From: a virus
Taxonomy: Duplodnaviria; Caudoviricetes
Length of the DNA stretch: 64,000 nucleotides
Reading direction: 5' to 3' (one strand)
Virus record (IMG/VR): IMGVR_UViG_3300028392_002123
Below the pieces are notes generated by a model. The model had not been told where the DNA came from, ran no database searches, and saw only the letters and a program-made list of their open reading frames with translations. Positions within the stretch are counted from its first letter, which is position 1. Each line of letters starts with the position of its first letter. Shown here piece by piece: positions 3,641 through 64,000 of this stretch. Made by a program: the position numbers and the translations under genes.

Positions 3641-5089
3641 ATGCACGTCATATTTTTAAACAGTATATACACACAAATTCCGCAAAGAAGTCTTGGTCCG
3701 TATTTGCTCAAACATCAATTAGCCAAGAATAATTATCAAAGTCAAGTCATTGATTTTTGTCAAGACTGGCATGCTGATCAAATTTTACTGCTATTTAAAA
3801 AATTTGCCACAGACAAAACTCTGTGTTTGGCACTGAGCAGTACATTTTGGTTTGACGAAACACAGACTTATTATACCTATGACAACGGAATTCCGCCCAA
3901 CATTTATCAAGCCGTTAAATTAATTAAACAACAGTTTCCCCAGGTTAAAATCGTTTTGGGCGGAGCGCACAGTAGTTATATGCGTTATAGAATAGAAGAC
4001 GTGGACTGTGTGTTCATTGGAGAAAGCGAAGACACACTGGTAGAAGTGTTGGACCATTGGTGCCGGGCCGGCCAAGAACCTGTCAGTGAAATTAATCCCG
4101 CCACAGGCAAATTAACATACAGAGATCCAAGGAATAAAAAATATCAAATACAGACCTGTGATTTTATGTGGCAGGAAGAAGACTGTATTATCAACAAAGA
4201 AGCTCTGCCCATGGAAACTGCTAGAGGCTGTATATTTAAATGTAGTTTTTGCGCTTATCCGCACTTGGGTAAAAAGAAATTCGATTATTTAAAACCCAAT
4301 GATGCCATTAAAAATTATTTAATTAACAATTATAATCGTTGGCAGACCACTAGTTATATCATCTTAGATGACACTTTCAATGACAGCGAATATAAAATAG
4401 ATGGATTTTTAGATATTACTAAAAGCCTGCCTTTTAGCATAGAATACGCGGCCTATATTAGAGCAGACTTGGTCTATAGGTTTGAAGGCATGGCAGACAA
4501 GCTGGCAGAAACAGGCCTGCGTGGAGCTTTCTTTGGCATTGAAAGCCTGCACCCCCGGGCCAGTCAGATTGTGGGCAAAGGCTGGAGCGGTAGACATGCT
4601 CGTGAGTTTGTGCCCAGACTGGTACATGACACGTGGCAGAATAAGATCACTGCACATTGTGGATTAATTGTGGGACTGCCCGGAGAAACTCGTGAAGATT
4701 TAACTACAAGTTTAACCTGGGCCAATGACAACATGATCAATGTTATTTTCTTTGGCCTGCAGGTCACTAATAACTTACACGAGCGTAGCTATATCAGTGA
4801 ATTCGAGCGTAACGCTGACAAATATGGATTTAAATTTGACGAGCATGGAAAATGGTATAATGACACGTGGACAAGAAATTCTGTTTTAGAATTCAGCGCA
4901 CAATTAAATCCTCAGCGCAGGCGCATGAATTATTCGGGATTTAATCACGTGGCCCTGCACACACTGGGCTATACCAATGAAGAAATAATGAACACACACC
5001 AGGATCTACTAGTGCGTAACAGTGAGGAATTTCGTCAGCGTAAACAACAATTCCTCAGGGCCTATTGGAATAAAATTATCAATTTATAA
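3641..5089 (+). CDS. B12-binding-domain radical SAM enzyme (paralog of 1421..2905)
   Basis: ETARGCIFKCSFCAY, DDTF, GIES, IVLGGAH, FIGESE. Confidence 0.85.
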   Translation: MHVIFLNSIYTQIPQRSLGPYLLKHQLAKNNYQSQVIDFCQDWHADQILLLFKKFATDKTLCLALSSTFWFDETQTYYTYDNGIPPNIYQAVKLIKQQFPQVKIVLGGAHSSYMRYRIEDVDCVFIGESEDTLVEVLDHWCRAGQEPVSEINPATGKLTYRDPRNKKYQIQTCDFMWQEEDCIINKEALPMETARGCIFKCSFCAYPHLGKKKFDYLKPNDAIKNYLINNYNRWQTTSYIILDDTFNDSEYKIDGFLDITKSLPFSIEYAAYIRADLVYRFEGMADKLAETGLRGAFFGIESLHPRASQIVGKGWSGRHAREFVPRLVHDTWQNKITAHCGLIVGLPGETREDLTTSLTWANDNMINVIFFGLQVTNNLHERSYISEFERNADKYGFKFDEHGKWYNDTWTRNSVLEFSAQLNPQRRRMNYSGFNHVALHTLGYTNEEIMNTHQDLLVRNSEEFRQRKQQFLRAYWNKIINL

Positions 5090-17399: not shown

Positions 17400-17603
17400 T
17401 TATTCTTTGATAATTTTTATCAATTTAATTAGATCCCTGCGAATAGCATATTCTGTAGAACCAACACGAATATGCAAACAACCCCGATTTTTTCTTAATA
17501 CTGTTAACAGTCTATCGGGCACAATGCCCAAAGACTTTAGTCTTTCATGATCAACTGAAATGATTCGACATTGTTGATTTGGTTTTAAATCATCTATGTT
17601 CAT
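17400..17603 (-). CDS. feoA: FeoA-like SH3 protein
   Basis: IDDLKPNQQCRI...RLKSLGIVP...V.V..TEYAIRR. Confidence 0.65.
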   Translation of the reverse strand: MNIDDLKPNQQCRIISVDHERLKSLGIVPDRLLTVLRKNRGCLHIRVGSTEYAIRRDLIKLIKIIKE

Positions 17604-17606
17604 ATA

Positions 17607-17683
17607 TGGCGCGGTGGACGGGACTCGAACCCGCGACCCTCGGCGTGACAGGCCGATACTCTAACCAACTGAGCTACCACCGC
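17607..17683 (-). tRNA. tRNA-Asp(GTC)
   Basis: Cloverleaf, loop CT-GTC-AC, encoded CCA. Confidence 0.95.
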
Positions 17684-18311
17684 TAATCTTCTTAACTCTA
17701 ACTAAATCCAGACTGGGATTACACACTGGAATTCTAGCGTATTTAATATAAAAATTCTTTAATAATTCTAACTCTATGTCCTTGCACAAACTAGGATGCA
17801 TGGGCAAGTATGCTTGATAACATTTATCAATTAACTTAGCATCAAAGTTTTCTTTAAACGCAGTACCACAACCATAGGGACTAAGTCTATTATTTCTAAT
17901 AGTTCCTTTAAAGTCTGTGCGTCTGCCTAACATACAATTACGTGTTACTGCTCTACTTTCACCAATGTAAATAACCTGTTCAGATAAAAAATCTGCAGGT
18001 CCCGGGGGAACAGTATCTTCAAATAGTCCATATATATAACAACCTGGATGTGCTTTGTCAAAGCCCCAGGTCCTGGACCAAGGTTCGTCTATGTGATGCC
18101 AAGCTGTAAAATTTTTAAAGTCTGGCCTTACAGTAGTTTTTAGTTGTGTGACAAAATATTCAACGCCACTTAACTCAGCACACTTCCGTAGGCTATAAGC
18201 CAATTGTTCTATGTTAGAATCTTTGAATATATCATAGAGTTGGTCTTCGGTTAATCCGTGATTACCTGATCCCATTCTAATATTTTTAGCAAGTATCTGT
18301 GCGGCGTTCAT
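17661..18311 (-). CDS. GIY-YIG-like nuclease; 3' end overlaps tRNA-Asp
   Basis: GCYIYGL...VIYIGES...R...E pattern. Confidence 0.55.
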   Translation of the reverse strand: MNAAQILAKNIRMGSGNHGLTEDQLYDIFKDSNIEQLAYSLRKCAELSGVEYFVTQLKTTVRPDFKNFTAWHHIDEPWSRTWGFDKAHPGCYIYGLFEDTVPPGPADFLSEQVIYIGESRAVTRNCMLGRRTDFKGTIRNNRLSPYGCGTAFKENFDAKLIDKCYQAYLPMHPSLCKDIELELLKNFYIKYARIPVCNPSLDLVRVKKISGGSSVG

Positions 18312-18320
18312 TGTTATAAT

Positions 18321-18398
18321 TGGAGCAACGGGTAGGATTTGAACCTACGGTTTTAGGGATTTGCAATCCCTTGCATTGGGCCACTCTGCCACCGTTGC
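18321..18398 (-). tRNA. tRNA-Cys(GCA)
   Basis: Loop TT-GCA-AA, CCA. Confidence 0.93.
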
Positions 18399-18403
18399 AT
18401 TGT

Positions 18404-18478
18404 TGGTACTCGATAGGGGAATCGAACCCCTCTTTCCGGCGTGAAAGGCCAGCGTCCTAACCGATAGACGAATCGAGC
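18404..18478 (-). tRNA. tRNA-Glu(TTC)
   Basis: Loop CT-TTC-AC, CCA. Confidence 0.95.
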
Positions 18479-18495
18479 AATGATATTATTTTACA

Positions 18496-19146
18496 TTAAA
18501 TGTTTGACTGTGTCAACTGATATTTTGCAATTAGATTATCAATTAATTCTTTTTTTGGTTCAGTGTGAAATTGATACCAGATGTGTAATCTTCTATGACC
18601 TTTGGGAACATGGATATCATGCTGTATCGCTGTTTGTATCAGCACCGGAGTACTGGTAATAGGTTGATGTACAGTCAATGATTCTGTGTCGTTTCTAAAT
18701 TTCCAAAGACATTCCGGAGTTGTTTCCACAGCAATGTGTACACGAAAGGGAGTGTGATTATCCACGTGCCAGTTAAGATTTACATTAGCATGATCTTTGT
18801 ATAATAAACTTGATCTTGCTCTAGGCGGCCCTATTTCTAAGTATTCTGAAAATAACTTTCCCAGCTGTTGAATATAAGATCCCTGCAATGATCTGGGCCA
18901 ATGCACTAAATCTCTGTCATCTTCTCCTGTGGCCAGTATATGTCTACTATGAGGATTAAATTTACGTTGTCCACTGTATTTTGTAAAACTGAAATTGTCG
19001 TTGTTAAGATCTTCTAGTTGACAAGTTAGACCGCAGTCTATGCCAATCTGTGGTTTAACTATGTTATAAATCTCTTGTCGAACTTTATCAACATCAACAT
19101 TAATATCTACTAAGGGGATATAAAATTGATCTAATAGTGTATGCAT
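18496..19146 (-). CDS. Asp/Asn beta-hydroxylase-like 2OG oxygenase
   Basis: WHVDN...RVHIA...QHDI; TATAAATA at 19152-19159. Confidence 0.6.
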   Translation of the reverse strand: MHTLLDQFYIPLVDINVDVDKVRQEIYNIVKPQIGIDCGLTCQLEDLNNDNFSFTKYSGQRKFNPHSRHILATGEDDRDLVHWPRSLQGSYIQQLGKLFSEYLEIGPPRARSSLLYKDHANVNLNWHVDNHTPFRVHIAVETTPECLWKFRNDTESLTVHQPITSTPVLIQTAIQHDIHVPKGHRRLHIWYQFHTEPKKELIDNLIAKYQLTQSNI

Positions 19147-19159
19147 GGTGATATTTATA

Positions 19160-20860: not shown

Positions 20861-20889
20861 ATTATACACTATTATGACTTTGATGTCAA
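20861..20889 (-). promoter_or_regulatory. sigma70 consensus promoter
   Basis: TTGACA-17-TATAAT, followed by AGGAGG SD. Confidence 0.85.
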
Positions 20890-23430: not shown

Positions 23431-23459
23431 ATTATACAGTTATTTATCTTTTATGTCAA
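23431..23459 (-). promoter_or_regulatory. sigma70 consensus promoter of tRNA operon
   Basis: TTGACA-17-TATAAT. Confidence 0.85.
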
Positions 23460-28140: not shown

Positions 28141-28176
28141 ATGAAAATATTTATAGCACACTATCATCTATAATAT

Positions 28177-37965: not shown

Positions 37966-38553
37966 TTACCTTTTTGCAATAACTTGGTCAGCCAAACCAT
38001 ATGCCACAGCTTGATCTGCATTCATAAAATAATCACGCTCCATGTCTGCTTTGAGCTCATCGAAGGTCTTGCCCACACTATTATGATTAACGTAAATTTG
38101 TGTGAGATTTTTTTTCATTTCAAGAATTTCTCGAACATGAATTTCCATGTCAGTGGCTTGACCGCCGGCGCCACCGCTGGGTTGATGAATCATGTGTCTT
38201 GCGTTGGGAAGGATAAATCGTTTTCCCGCCGCTCCTGCTTGGGCAAGTAAACTACCCATCGAGCAGGCCTGCCCCATAACATAGGTGGATACATCTGGTC
38301 GGATAAACTGCATTGTATCATATATGGCCATACCGGCTGTGACACTACCACCTGGGCTATTAATAAACATTGTAATATCTCTGCCAGCATCTTCACTCTC
38401 CAAGAAAAGAAGTTGACCAACAATCAAGTTAGCCATTTGATCATGCACTTCGCCTTCTAGTAGAATAACGCGGTCACGCATTAAACGACTATACAAATCC
38501 ATGGCACGTTCACCATTGCCGGTGCGTTCCAAAACCATTGGTACCAAACTCAT
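37966..38553 (-). CDS. clpP: ATP-dependent Clp protease proteolytic subunit
   Basis: LVPMVLE, D.YSRL, INSPGG, ACSMG (catalytic Ser), MIHQP, ERD. Confidence 0.97.
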
Positions 38554-51435: not shown

Positions 51436-51879
51436 TTAGTTTGACTTACCTAAAATTTGGATCTTACGAGGCTTTAATTCTTCAGGAACGATCCTAGTAA
51501 TTTTAATACTAAGAATTCCATCTTGAATCATAGCATCACCGACCTGCATGTGTTCGGCCAAAGTAAAGCTCTTTTGAAATTCACGATAAGCTAAACCTCG
51601 ATGTAGGTACTCAAAATCTTCTGAGTCTTCGTGACTGCGTTGGCCACGGATTGTCAGTTCATTTTGATGTACTTCTACGTCAATGTCTTCCAAGGTAAAG
51701 CCAGCAACGGCTATTTCAATTTCATAGCTATCGTCGCTTTTCTTGATGACATTATAAGGGGGATAGTTTGTGCCATTTTGGAATCTAGTTTCAACTGTAT
51801 TAAACATACGGTCAAAACCAATTAAGGCTCTGTTCAGCTGATTTAAAGCTGTTGTGTCAAATCGTGTTAATGCGTTCAT
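51436..51879 (-). CDS. Small heat-shock protein Hsp20 (IbpA-like)
   Basis: YPPYN, EIAVAGF, YLHRGLA.R.F, GIL.I; start MNALTR with AGGAGA SD. Confidence 0.93.
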   Translation of the reverse strand: MNALTRFDTTALNQLNRALIGFDRMFNTVETRFQNGTNYPPYNVIKKSDDSYEIEIAVAGFTLEDIDVEVHQNELTIRGQRSHEDSEDFEYLHRGLAYREFQKSFTLAEHMQVGDAMIQDGILSIKITRIVPEELKPRKIQILGKSN

Positions 51880-51970
51880 AATTTTCTCCTTTAATAAGCA
51901 AGAACGTTTTGGGCTACGTGCCCGATGTACAACCCTATTGGCGTCGTACAAATATATTTATACATTAATT

Positions 51971-52370: not shown

Positions 52371-52601
52371 TCAATACATCTTTTTAGGTAGTGCTTCTGA
52401 TTCGCGTTTCTTTTGTGCTCTGCGAACTTGTTGATTTTTAATGCGTCTGCGCTTGGTAGTTGGTTTTTCGTAGAACTCACGTTCTTTCAAATCCATGAGC
52501 TTACCGCTTTCCATGATTTTCTTTTTAAAAGTACGCAAAGCTTTTTCTACGTTATCGTTACGGACTTCTACCATACTTCCGTTAAACTGTTTTTTTGTCA
52601 T
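52371..52601 (-). CDS. rpsU: Ribosomal protein bS21
   Basis: V.V..DNVEKALR.FKKK...G...REFYEKPT..R. Confidence 0.93.
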   Translation of the reverse strand: MTKKQFNGSMVEVRNDNVEKALRTFKKKIMESGKLMDLKEREFYEKPTTKRRRIKNQQVRRAQKKRESEALPKKMY

Positions 52602-53136
52602 TTACTTTCCCTTGATATAGTGTAGCCGTAATCCTATTGCCTTGTAGTTCGCTCTTGCCTTCTACTTTGGCGCTGGGCATTTCTGCTAGAATATTATTTA
52701 AGATTTCGAAACCAGTTCCTGTATTGGCCATTTCTCTTCCTCTAAATTTAATAATAATCCTTACTTTGTCACCTTCTTCTAACCATTCCTTGATGTGTTT
52801 CATTTTAACATCAAGATCGTGAGTATCAATTGCTGGGCGAATTTGAACTTCTTTAATATCTACGCGATTTTCTCGTGCTTTTTTATTCTGTTCTTTTTCC
52901 CGTTTTTGTAAATCATATTTGTATCTTCCCACATCTCCGATTTTACATATAGGGGGATTTGACTGTGGATTAATCAAGATTAAATCTAATGATTGATCTG
53001 CCGCTTGATCTAACGCTTTAAAGAAAGGATAGATACCAAGATTAGCACCATCGGCACCGATCAGTCTTACTTCCCTTGCTCGTATTTCTCTATTAGACAG
53101 GATTCTGTTTTCGTGTCTTCTTTCGTTCATTGCCAT
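52582..53136 (-). CDS. infC: Translation initiation factor IF-3
   Basis: N.EIRA.EVRLI, PPICKI.D.G.YKY, KEV..RP.ID.HD, FRGRE. Confidence 0.95.
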   Translation of the reverse strand: MAMNERRHENRILSNREIRAREVRLIGADGANLGIYPFFKALDQAADQSLDLILINPQSNPPICKIGDVGRYKYDLQKREKEQNKKARENRVDIKEVQIRPAIDTHDLDVKMKHIKEWLEEGDKVRIIIKFRGREMANTGTGFEILNNILAEMPSAKVEGKSELQGNRITATLYQGKVNDKKTV

Positions 53137-63513: not shown

Positions 63514-64000
63514 AGAAACCCGCCGAAGCGGGTTCTGAGTTTCTGTTACGAGGTATGTCTTACCCTAAGCGGAGTTTAGGCCGCTAAAGCGAACTGTTCG
63601 TCGTTTGCATTTACGTTTTTTGTGTCTTCGACCGGGTTCCCCCAATCCTAACGGCTTCTACATTGCCGGACTGTCCATTTCATTACTCTTGACCCTGTCG
63701 AAACCATGGCAGGCCCATCATAAGAAAACTCAATTAAATGTCATATGACCGGTTGCGTATAATACTGCCATTACAGGACCAGCTATATGCTCTCCGATTT
63801 CATACAACGCCCATACAGTTAGCGCCACTGCCCACCATGGATTAGATTCCGCTTTTTGACCTAACCAGGTAAAAAACTTTCCATGAGCACGACCAATTGC
63901 ATTTGCAAATTTAACTATCATAACAAACTTCCTTATGGTGGACCTGGCGGGAGTCGAACCCGCGTCCAGAATGCCTTCACTTTGAAGGGATTACAACTAT
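63514..64000 (-). ncRNA. ssrA: Circularly permuted (two-piece) tmRNA gene; 5' end may lie just outside the window
   Basis: Acceptor piece ending T-arm + CAGGTCC-A-CCA (63936) precedes coding piece GGGCCTG (63716); G3.U70; tag ANDEQFALAA* at 63576-63608; terminator 63514-63537. Confidence 0.92.
63730..63921 (-). CDS. 63-aa hydrophobic ORF inside the tmRNA intervening segment
   Basis: TAAGGAAG SD directly after CCA; ORF fills the intervening segment. Confidence 0.6.
   Translation of the reverse strand: MIVKFANAIGRAHGKFFTWLGQKAESNPWWAVALTVWALYEIGEHIAGPVMAVLYATGHMTFN

Follow-up and report, generated by a model that had tools for sequence, protein, structure and literature searches.

In the DNA of an uncultured phage of the Caudoviricetes, the gene for a GIY-YIG-fold nuclease ends inside a gene for tRNA-Asp, and we regard it as probable that an intact, conserved accessory nuclease gene was here joined to the tRNA gene by a rearrangement, the overlap being an extreme of tight packing and not an evolved control device. 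The locus lies in a stretch of 64,000 nt (the window, by which we mean the whole of the DNA analysed) from IMG/VR record IMGVR_UViG_3300028392_002123, which comes from a freshwater T4-like giant phage.

The junction between the nuclease gene and tRNA-Asp

The minus strand of the window carries 20 tRNA genes and a gene for transfer-messenger RNA (tmRNA), which were found with ARAGORN and all confirmed by Rfam. The nuclease open reading frame (ORF) and its immediate surroundings are arranged as follows.

18404..18478, minus strand: tRNA-Glu(UUC), the first gene of the unit (ARAGORN, Rfam)
18321..18398, minus strand: tRNA-Cys(GCA), found by ARAGORN and by Rfam (62.6 bits at 18398..18324, Rfam being without CCA); its CCA is encoded and ends at 18321
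18312..18320, minus strand: spacer ATTATAACA, 9 nt from the CCA of tRNA-Cys to the ATG, without a Shine-Dalgarno motif
17661..18311, minus strand: nuclease ORF, 216 aa, the sole long ORF between tRNA-Cys and tRNA-Asp
17661..17683, minus strand: dual-coding overlap of 23 nt, in which the last 7 ORF codons and the UAG are positions 1-23 of tRNA-Asp
17607..17683, minus strand: tRNA-Asp(GUC), found by ARAGORN and by Rfam (71.5 bits, a full-length model match at 17683..17610 without CCA)
17400..17603, minus strand: FeoA-domain ORF, 67 aa, its ATG 3 nt after the CCA of tRNA-Asp

The shared segment covers the acceptor 5' strand, the D stem and the D loop of tRNA-Asp, with the UAG of the ORF in the D loop. 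The 3' end of the ORF reads (A)GC GGT GGT AGC TCA GTT GGT TAG (S-G-G-S-S-V-G-stop), position 1 of the tRNA being the G of the codon AGC. A preliminary description of this DNA had placed the start of the ORF 9 nt past the CCA of tRNA-Cys and had identified its final 23 nt with the start of tRNA-Asp on the same strand; the first statement agrees with the spacer at 18320..18312, and the second is borne out by the reading of the sequence, ARAGORN and Rfam. More than 100 homologs support the ATG of the ORF by their N-termini, and near-identical copies of tRNA-Cys occur in other giant-phage contigs (L066-L076). When the three frames of tRNA-Asp were read, one showed a TAG at positions 8-10, the frame of the nuclease ORF a TAG at positions 21-23, and the third was open throughout; the position of the stop within the tRNA is unremarkable.

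Gene ends were then compared across ~58 complete homologous genes (loci L001-L063), each extended to its stop codon, with the tRNAs mapped in flanks of up to 4 kb a side. The preliminary description had proposed to check whether homologs keep the overlap; they do not, as a stop inside a tRNA was found in 0 of the ~58 genes and all of them stop before any tRNA. Most of these loci have no tRNA within the flanks. Two of them (L003 and L004) stop 9 nt, and a third (L009) 2 nt, before a tRNA-Ser, and in L014 and L060 a tRNA-Arg lies 5 and 12 nt, respectively, upstream of the start of the nuclease gene. L060 is the closest relative (87% identity), and in it the next protein gene overlaps the stop codon of the nuclease gene by 4 nt. 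The conserved part of the protein ends in ...VRVKK and is followed by variable tails of 3-13 residues. An alignment of the 3'-end DNA of the window gene with those of L060 and L001 showed good homology up to ...AAGAAGATTA (...ATTA), past which the window continues as tRNA-Asp and the other two loci run on for six codons to a TGA. The break in homology falls within a base or two of the first nucleotide (+1) of tRNA-Asp, which argues that tRNA sequence has taken the place of the gene's original end in a lineage-specific junction. A local frameshift artefact was ruled out, as the reading frame is continuous and the homology ends at the tRNA boundary.

The tRNA-Asp gene itself is 73/77 identical to that of five contigs of the viral collection with a Val-Asp layout (L077-L081). 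The two versions differ by a compensatory pair, by a change from G-U to A-U and by a T-loop base, four positions in all, and pairing is thereby kept or improved. The gene is unlike the tRNA-Asp genes of related phages (L073, L076). A degenerate pattern over both versions matches genomes of the Rhodobacterales and Neisseriales. The phage tRNA-Asp itself has 1 mismatch to the Vitreoscilla copies and 2-3 to freshwater Rhodobacterales, and is at least one base off every cellular copy retrieved; its first 27 nt (5') are identical to a cellular-type tRNA. Given the preserved pairing and the cellular matches, tRNA-Asp looks functional and of cellular origin, which suggests that it was captured from a host. 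The cloverleaf is the minimum-energy fold within the local transcript context, and folding of the local transcript yielded no alternative RNA fold masking the 3' end of the nuclease ORF. We also considered a decaying pseudogene and rejected it on the grounds of the Rfam score, the minimum-energy cloverleaf and the compensatory changes. The identity of the host as read from tRNA-Asp is ambiguous between Rhodobacterales and Neisseriales/Vitreoscilla types, with no exact match; tRNA-Asp and the permuted tmRNA of this phage together are a host clue, likewise ambiguous.

The nuclease family

No Pfam, PHROGs or NCBIfam model was matched by the protein, by 39 family members or by 10 remote relatives; among the models that the protein failed to match are Pfam PF01541 and its relatives. 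An AlphaFold model built from 39 family members (pLDDT 92, pTM 0.82) predicts an N-terminal three-helix domain (~residues 1-55) and a GIY-YIG-fold nuclease domain (~64-200), with the last 8 residues forming a non-conserved tail, disordered in the model at residues 213-216. The predicted strands (90-96, 113-119 and 164-170) and helices (126-139 and 173-191) make up a beta-beta-alpha-(alpha)-beta-alpha core. In an exhaustive structural comparison (VIA) the seven best matches were all GIY-YIG proteins, with Z between 5.0 and 9.1: T4 endonuclease II (9.1), the GIY-YIG-like N-terminal domain of a plant glutaredoxin (7.6), R.Eco29kI (7.6), the catalytic domain of I-TevI (7.5), the N-terminal domain of UvrC (6.6), PD-T4-3 (5.4) and Hpy188I (5.0). 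The best Foldseek matches were to the same families, with weak E-values of 0.1-0.3, and a protein language-model search gave, as leads only, a cluster with GIY-YIG on 11% of its members and an Eco29kI cluster, both with a score of 0.93.

Residues G90, Y92, Y115, G117, R130 and E180 never vary, whether within the family or among its remote relatives; all close members have N198, and most of the remote ones retain the C-N motif at 197-198. The set corresponds to a Tyr on strand 1, a Tyr-x-Gly on strand 2, an Arg on helix 1 and a downstream Glu and Asn, in the canonical GIY-YIG order, the assignment to catalytic positions being based on motif order and secondary structure. By the predicted structure the protein is a GIY-YIG nuclease in fold and active site only, and by sequence it is a new family. 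The name GIY-YIG, which the preliminary description had given to the ORF, is upheld by the fold (VIA, Foldseek) and the motifs, and not by the profile libraries.

A homolog search returned 151 clusters at 90% identity; among the 120 listed, all from metagenomes, the proteins are 56-84% identical and 211-237 aa long (mostly 212-225). Loci of the family number 59 in IMG/VR, and a metagenome scan gave only five. Remote relatives, many of them 136-150 aa long, came from a profile search of 1.8 billion representatives. No member turned up when 185,579 prokaryotic genomes were scanned for the two motifs of the family; cultured-phage genomes yielded nothing in searches by nucleotide or by protein sequence, and a profile search of the PDB sequences returned spurious matches only. 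A by-product of this work is a widespread, strongly conserved family of GIY-YIG-fold nucleases that lies outside the curated libraries searched and is found in viral and metagenome sequences.

Predicted consequences of the overlap and competing explanations

We surveyed the tRNA-bearing loci of related phages (283 tRNAs) for same-strand junctions of an ORF (100 aa or longer) with a tRNA that follows within 150 nt. Of the 42 such junctions, the stop lies inside the tRNA in 7, and the two genes are separated by 0-15 nt in 15 and by 16-50 nt in 12. An eighth overlap, outside the filter of the survey, belongs to a 334-aa NAD-dependent epimerase/dehydratase (Pfam E = 1e-56), the gene of which ends inside a tRNA. 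Overlapping genes lie at these loci:

L071:1903-2376, same strand as the tRNA
L073:13477-13950, same strand as the tRNA
L068:2942-3946, same strand as the tRNA
L070:5938-6372, same strand as the tRNA
L024:5735-6103, same strand as the tRNA
L073:11952-12695, same strand as the tRNA
L066:4223-4951, same strand as the tRNA

The functions of these genes are unrelated and their stops lie 6-47 nt inside the tRNA. The gene of an RNase H-like protein keeps a 6-nt overlap in two different phages, and genes of an HNH protein and a WYL_2 protein also end inside tRNAs. The usual stops in the overlaps are tRNA nucleotides 8-10 (TAG or TAA) or 4-6 (TGA); nucleotides 8-10 and the D loop of a tRNA readily act as stop codons. 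The 23-nt overlap of the window is long but not the longest, which is the one of 47 nt in L066. Overlaps of this kind are recurrent but not general.

The preliminary description had also noted that the phage encodes tmRNA, ClpX and ClpP, and all three were found in the window. Their positions, and those of the tmRNA gene in three relatives, are given below.

63576..63998, minus strand: permuted two-piece tmRNA (117 bits), tag ANDEQFALAA
53093..54328, minus strand: ClpX homolog
37966..38553, minus strand: ClpP homolog
G004:287991-288216, tmRNA of a relative
G001:323279-323540, tmRNA of a relative
G005:135975-136274, tmRNA of a relative

A permuted tmRNA is present in 5/5 large relatives, G001 without the nuclease gene among them, and in 3/5 fragments; in all three near-complete relatives (G001, G004 and G005) it is encoded 2-7 kb away from where the tRNA island ends. 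Nothing ties tmRNA or ClpXP to the nuclease gene.

RNase P cuts at the +1 of a tRNA, and messages without a stop codon are handled by trans-translation. Under the reading that we prefer, a lineage-specific rearrangement would have fused the nuclease gene to the 5' end of a cellular-type tRNA-Asp gene and removed its last few codons and its stop; translation would now terminate at the first in-frame stop of the tRNA, the UAG in the D loop, and both genes would remain functional. A putative sigma-70-like promoter (18488..18516, minus strand; TTGACA, 17 nt, TAAAAT, matching 11/12 of the consensus) lies ~10 nt upstream of tRNA-Glu and is likely, by its sequence and position, to be the start of a Glu-Cys-ORF-Asp-FeoA transcript. 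This transcript would be read to the UAG while tRNA-Asp is uncut, or be cut by RNase P at +1, and by the geometry of the locus and the established biology of RNase P the cut would remove the stop codon of the ORF and leave a message ending ...AAG AAG AUU A. Ribosomes would stall at the cut end, to be freed by tmRNA or by another rescue factor, and the released chain (residues 1-209) would keep the whole conserved domain. Some loss of nuclease yield would probably follow as a side effect, and ribosomes may transiently delay the maturation of tRNA-Asp.

A different account would make the protein a free-standing homing endonuclease, comparable to segB of phage T4, that recently homed into the Cys-Asp spacer and left the overlap as an insertion scar, with its target in or near the tRNA genes of phages that lack it. 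The GIY-YIG fold and the position between tRNA genes, as in T4 segB, are what one would expect of it. In L073 and L076, moreover, tRNA-Asp directly follows tRNA-Cys (at 5 nt and 40 nt), and the gene is missing from the complete 344-kb relative G001, in which the flanks of the site are collinear with those of G004 and have between them 1.3 kb of unrelated DNA where G004 has 1.9 kb with the gene and two neighbours; across the family the gene neighbours differ in almost every locus, and the gene occupies at least 5 different slots within tRNA islands. We nevertheless consider recent homing rather unlikely. The tRNA-Asp genes of L073 and L076 differ in sequence from that of the window, so these loci are not clean empty sites. 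Most copies of the gene are not near tRNAs; each genome has one, and those of the 345-kb relatives G004 and G005 stand ~100 kb away from the tRNA island. Its conservation is unusually strong for a selfish gene (67% identity to G004; for this genome pair ClpX gives 53% and ClpP 74%), the protein has no known DNA-binding module of the Seg/Tev kind (Pfam) and no significant similarity to SegB, I-TevI or DenA in profile comparisons, and its best structural match is T4 endonuclease II (EndoII), which is not a homing enzyme. We conclude that the gene is that of an accessory nuclease, under functional constraint but unstable in position.

The preliminary description had gone further and proposed that maturation of tRNA-Asp yields a non-stop mRNA and thereby caps a toxic homing nuclease. 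In that account the arrangement is a selected throttle, in which the message cut by RNase P gives a product that the tmRNA of the phage tags (ANDEQFALAA) for ClpXP, and the nuclease is kept low. The mechanical part stands, as loss of the stop is unavoidable from the geometry once RNase P has cut; the genes for tmRNA, ClpX and ClpP do occur in the same window, the truncated chain would still comprise the whole conserved domain, so that tagging would matter, and a related control through maturation of tRNA-Arg has been proposed for T4 segB (PMC2330249). As an evolved device it is not supported. The overlap is conserved in none of the ~58 complete homologous genes, which stop before tRNAs; the same type of overlap occurs on harmless enzymes such as the epimerase; tmRNA and ClpXP occur throughout the clade, also in phages that lack the gene or carry it far from tRNAs; and the junction resembles a rearrangement scar at the tRNA +1. 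We hold a selected throttle to be decidedly unlikely, and the idea that the overlap was selected for lower nuclease output is not supported, as nothing indicates it. It is extremely improbable that the junction is an assembly chimera or a sequencing error and that in the actual phage the gene stops normally ahead of the tRNA. Such an error might be suspected in an uncultured phage for the locus of which no second assembly was found, the more so as the 5' 27 nt of tRNA-Asp are of cellular type. Against it, tRNA-Asp is single in the window and at least one base off every cellular copy retrieved, and so is no repeat by which an assembler could be led astray, there are phage-like AT-rich genes on both sides, and the junction leaves an intact cloverleaf and an in-frame ORF.

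Several points weigh against our own preference for a rearrangement and tight packing. Four further tRNA islands (101 tRNAs) contain no such overlaps. Searches for relatives of the neighbouring genes yielded nothing useful and no sequence relative of the exact locus was found, so that the ancestral state at the site is inferred from more distant homologs. A lineage-specific origin is, besides, compatible with the overlap being useful now, and from the analogy with T4 segB it is seen that the control idea has been plausible to others. The phage is uncultured and is known here from its DNA, and what we say of processing versus translation rests on inference. If tRNA maturation does compete with translation, nature would here provide a protein-coding message that loses its stop through tRNA processing, and trans-translation in the course of a phage infection could easily be tested on it. 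The evidence points rather to a locus that chiefly illustrates the extent of gene packing in phage tRNA islands.

Short leaders are a further feature of the window. Four ORFs begin 3, 9, 13 and 9 nt past the CCA of a same-strand tRNA (17604-17606, 18312-18320, 19147-19159 and 28168-28176), the pairs being Asp and FeoA, Cys and the nuclease, Arg-UCG and a second 216-aa ORF, and Arg-UCU and an NMO-like ORF of 319 aa. A Shine-Dalgarno motif is absent from all four, and with the ATG 3-13 nt after the CCA, processing of the tRNA 3' end would leave near-leaderless mRNAs. Taking all loci together, an ORF starts right after 14/269 tRNAs, as against 3.6% of random positions, an enrichment too weak to claim. 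Two promoters that match the sigma-70 consensus at 12/12 positions (TTGACA, 17 nt, TATAAT) lie in the tRNA island at 20861-20889 and 23431-23459 (minus strand); one precedes a metallophosphatase gene and the other a Tyr-Glu-Gln-Lys-Arg tRNA array. Motifs resembling TATAAATA, the T4 late-promoter consensus, stand 5-8 nt before the ATG of many genes of the window (for example at 3641, 5099, 7671, 7719, 12275, 19146, 44661 and 56086), and a Shine-Dalgarno-like motif precedes only 22/67 of its ORFs. This spacing of the late motif and the scarcity of Shine-Dalgarno motifs suggest many late mRNAs with very short leaders. The window also encodes initiation factor 3 (IF3; 52582-53136, minus strand; both Pfam domains at E ~1e-26), next to ClpX and near an Hsp20 gene (51436-51951), and this factor may be relevant to the discrimination of start codons or leaderless mRNAs. 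From the four ATGs that follow a CCA in the window and the ~1 in 6 close junctions with a stop inside the tRNA in the sampled relatives, one may construct a broader view, which we find very doubtful: tRNA excision would routinely define both ends of mRNAs in the tRNA islands of this clade of giant freshwater phages, near-leaderless and stop-less messages would be regular, and tmRNA, perhaps with IF3, would be an adaptation to them. If true, this would be the counterpart in bacterial viruses of the tRNA punctuation of mitochondria.

Comparison with known systems

Among characterized nucleases, T4 endonuclease II (DenA, PDB 2wsh) is the best match to residues 64-200 (Z 9.1, rmsd 2.9 Å over 105 residues). 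DenA is a phage-encoded, non-homing GIY-YIG nuclease of 144 aa, and the remote relatives of the window family are of similar size (136-150 aa). The likeness of the sequences is slight: comparison of DenA with the family profile by hhalign gave a probability of at most 8%, which is not significant, and one remote relative matched it pairwise at E = 0.003 in the GIY...YIG region. Unlike DenA, the window protein has an extra N-terminal helical domain of ~60 aa.

The closest published parallel in gene layout is T4 segB, which encodes a GIY-YIG homing endonuclease and lies in the tRNA gene cluster of that phage (Brok-Volchanskaya et al., 2008, PMC2330249). Its authors proposed that maturation of tRNA-Arg severs the stop codon from the last codon and so limits the expression of segB, and they mentioned the endonucleases of the T5 tRNA cluster in the same sense (PMC2330249). 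The order in the T4 record is tRNA-Ile, 41 nt, segB, 5 nt, tRNA-Arg. The window shares with it a GIY-YIG-type ORF of ~220 aa between two same-strand tRNAs of a T4-like phage, with which the ORF of the window, too, is probably co-transcribed. The proteins have no detectable similarity, the hhalign probability of the family profile being <1% for SegB, as it is for I-TevI. The stop of segB lies just upstream of the tRNA, whereas here it occupies tRNA nucleotides 21-23, and unlike the T4 Seg proteins the window family is far more conserved and usually found outside tRNA clusters. The link to tmRNA and ClpXP was an addition of the preliminary description, and the control idea put forward there is a more extreme anatomical version of the published segB hypothesis with this step added. 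In the literature searched, the coverage of which was limited and is no proof of novelty, we found no description of stop codons inside phage tRNA genes.

In animal mitochondria, coding regions abut or overlap tRNAs, the ends of the messages are made by RNase P and RNase Z, and incomplete stop codons are completed by polyadenylation. The window ORF resembles these genes in being flanked directly by same-strand tRNAs (9 nt upstream and a 23-nt overlap downstream), and with such flanks excision of the tRNAs would define both ends of its mRNA. It differs in that the cut message would end ...AUU A, to which added A's would contribute Lys codons and no stop. Set beside these systems, what is new here is a GIY-YIG nuclease family, by its sequence, and a real 23-nt overlap of a gene with a tRNA in a segB-like layout.

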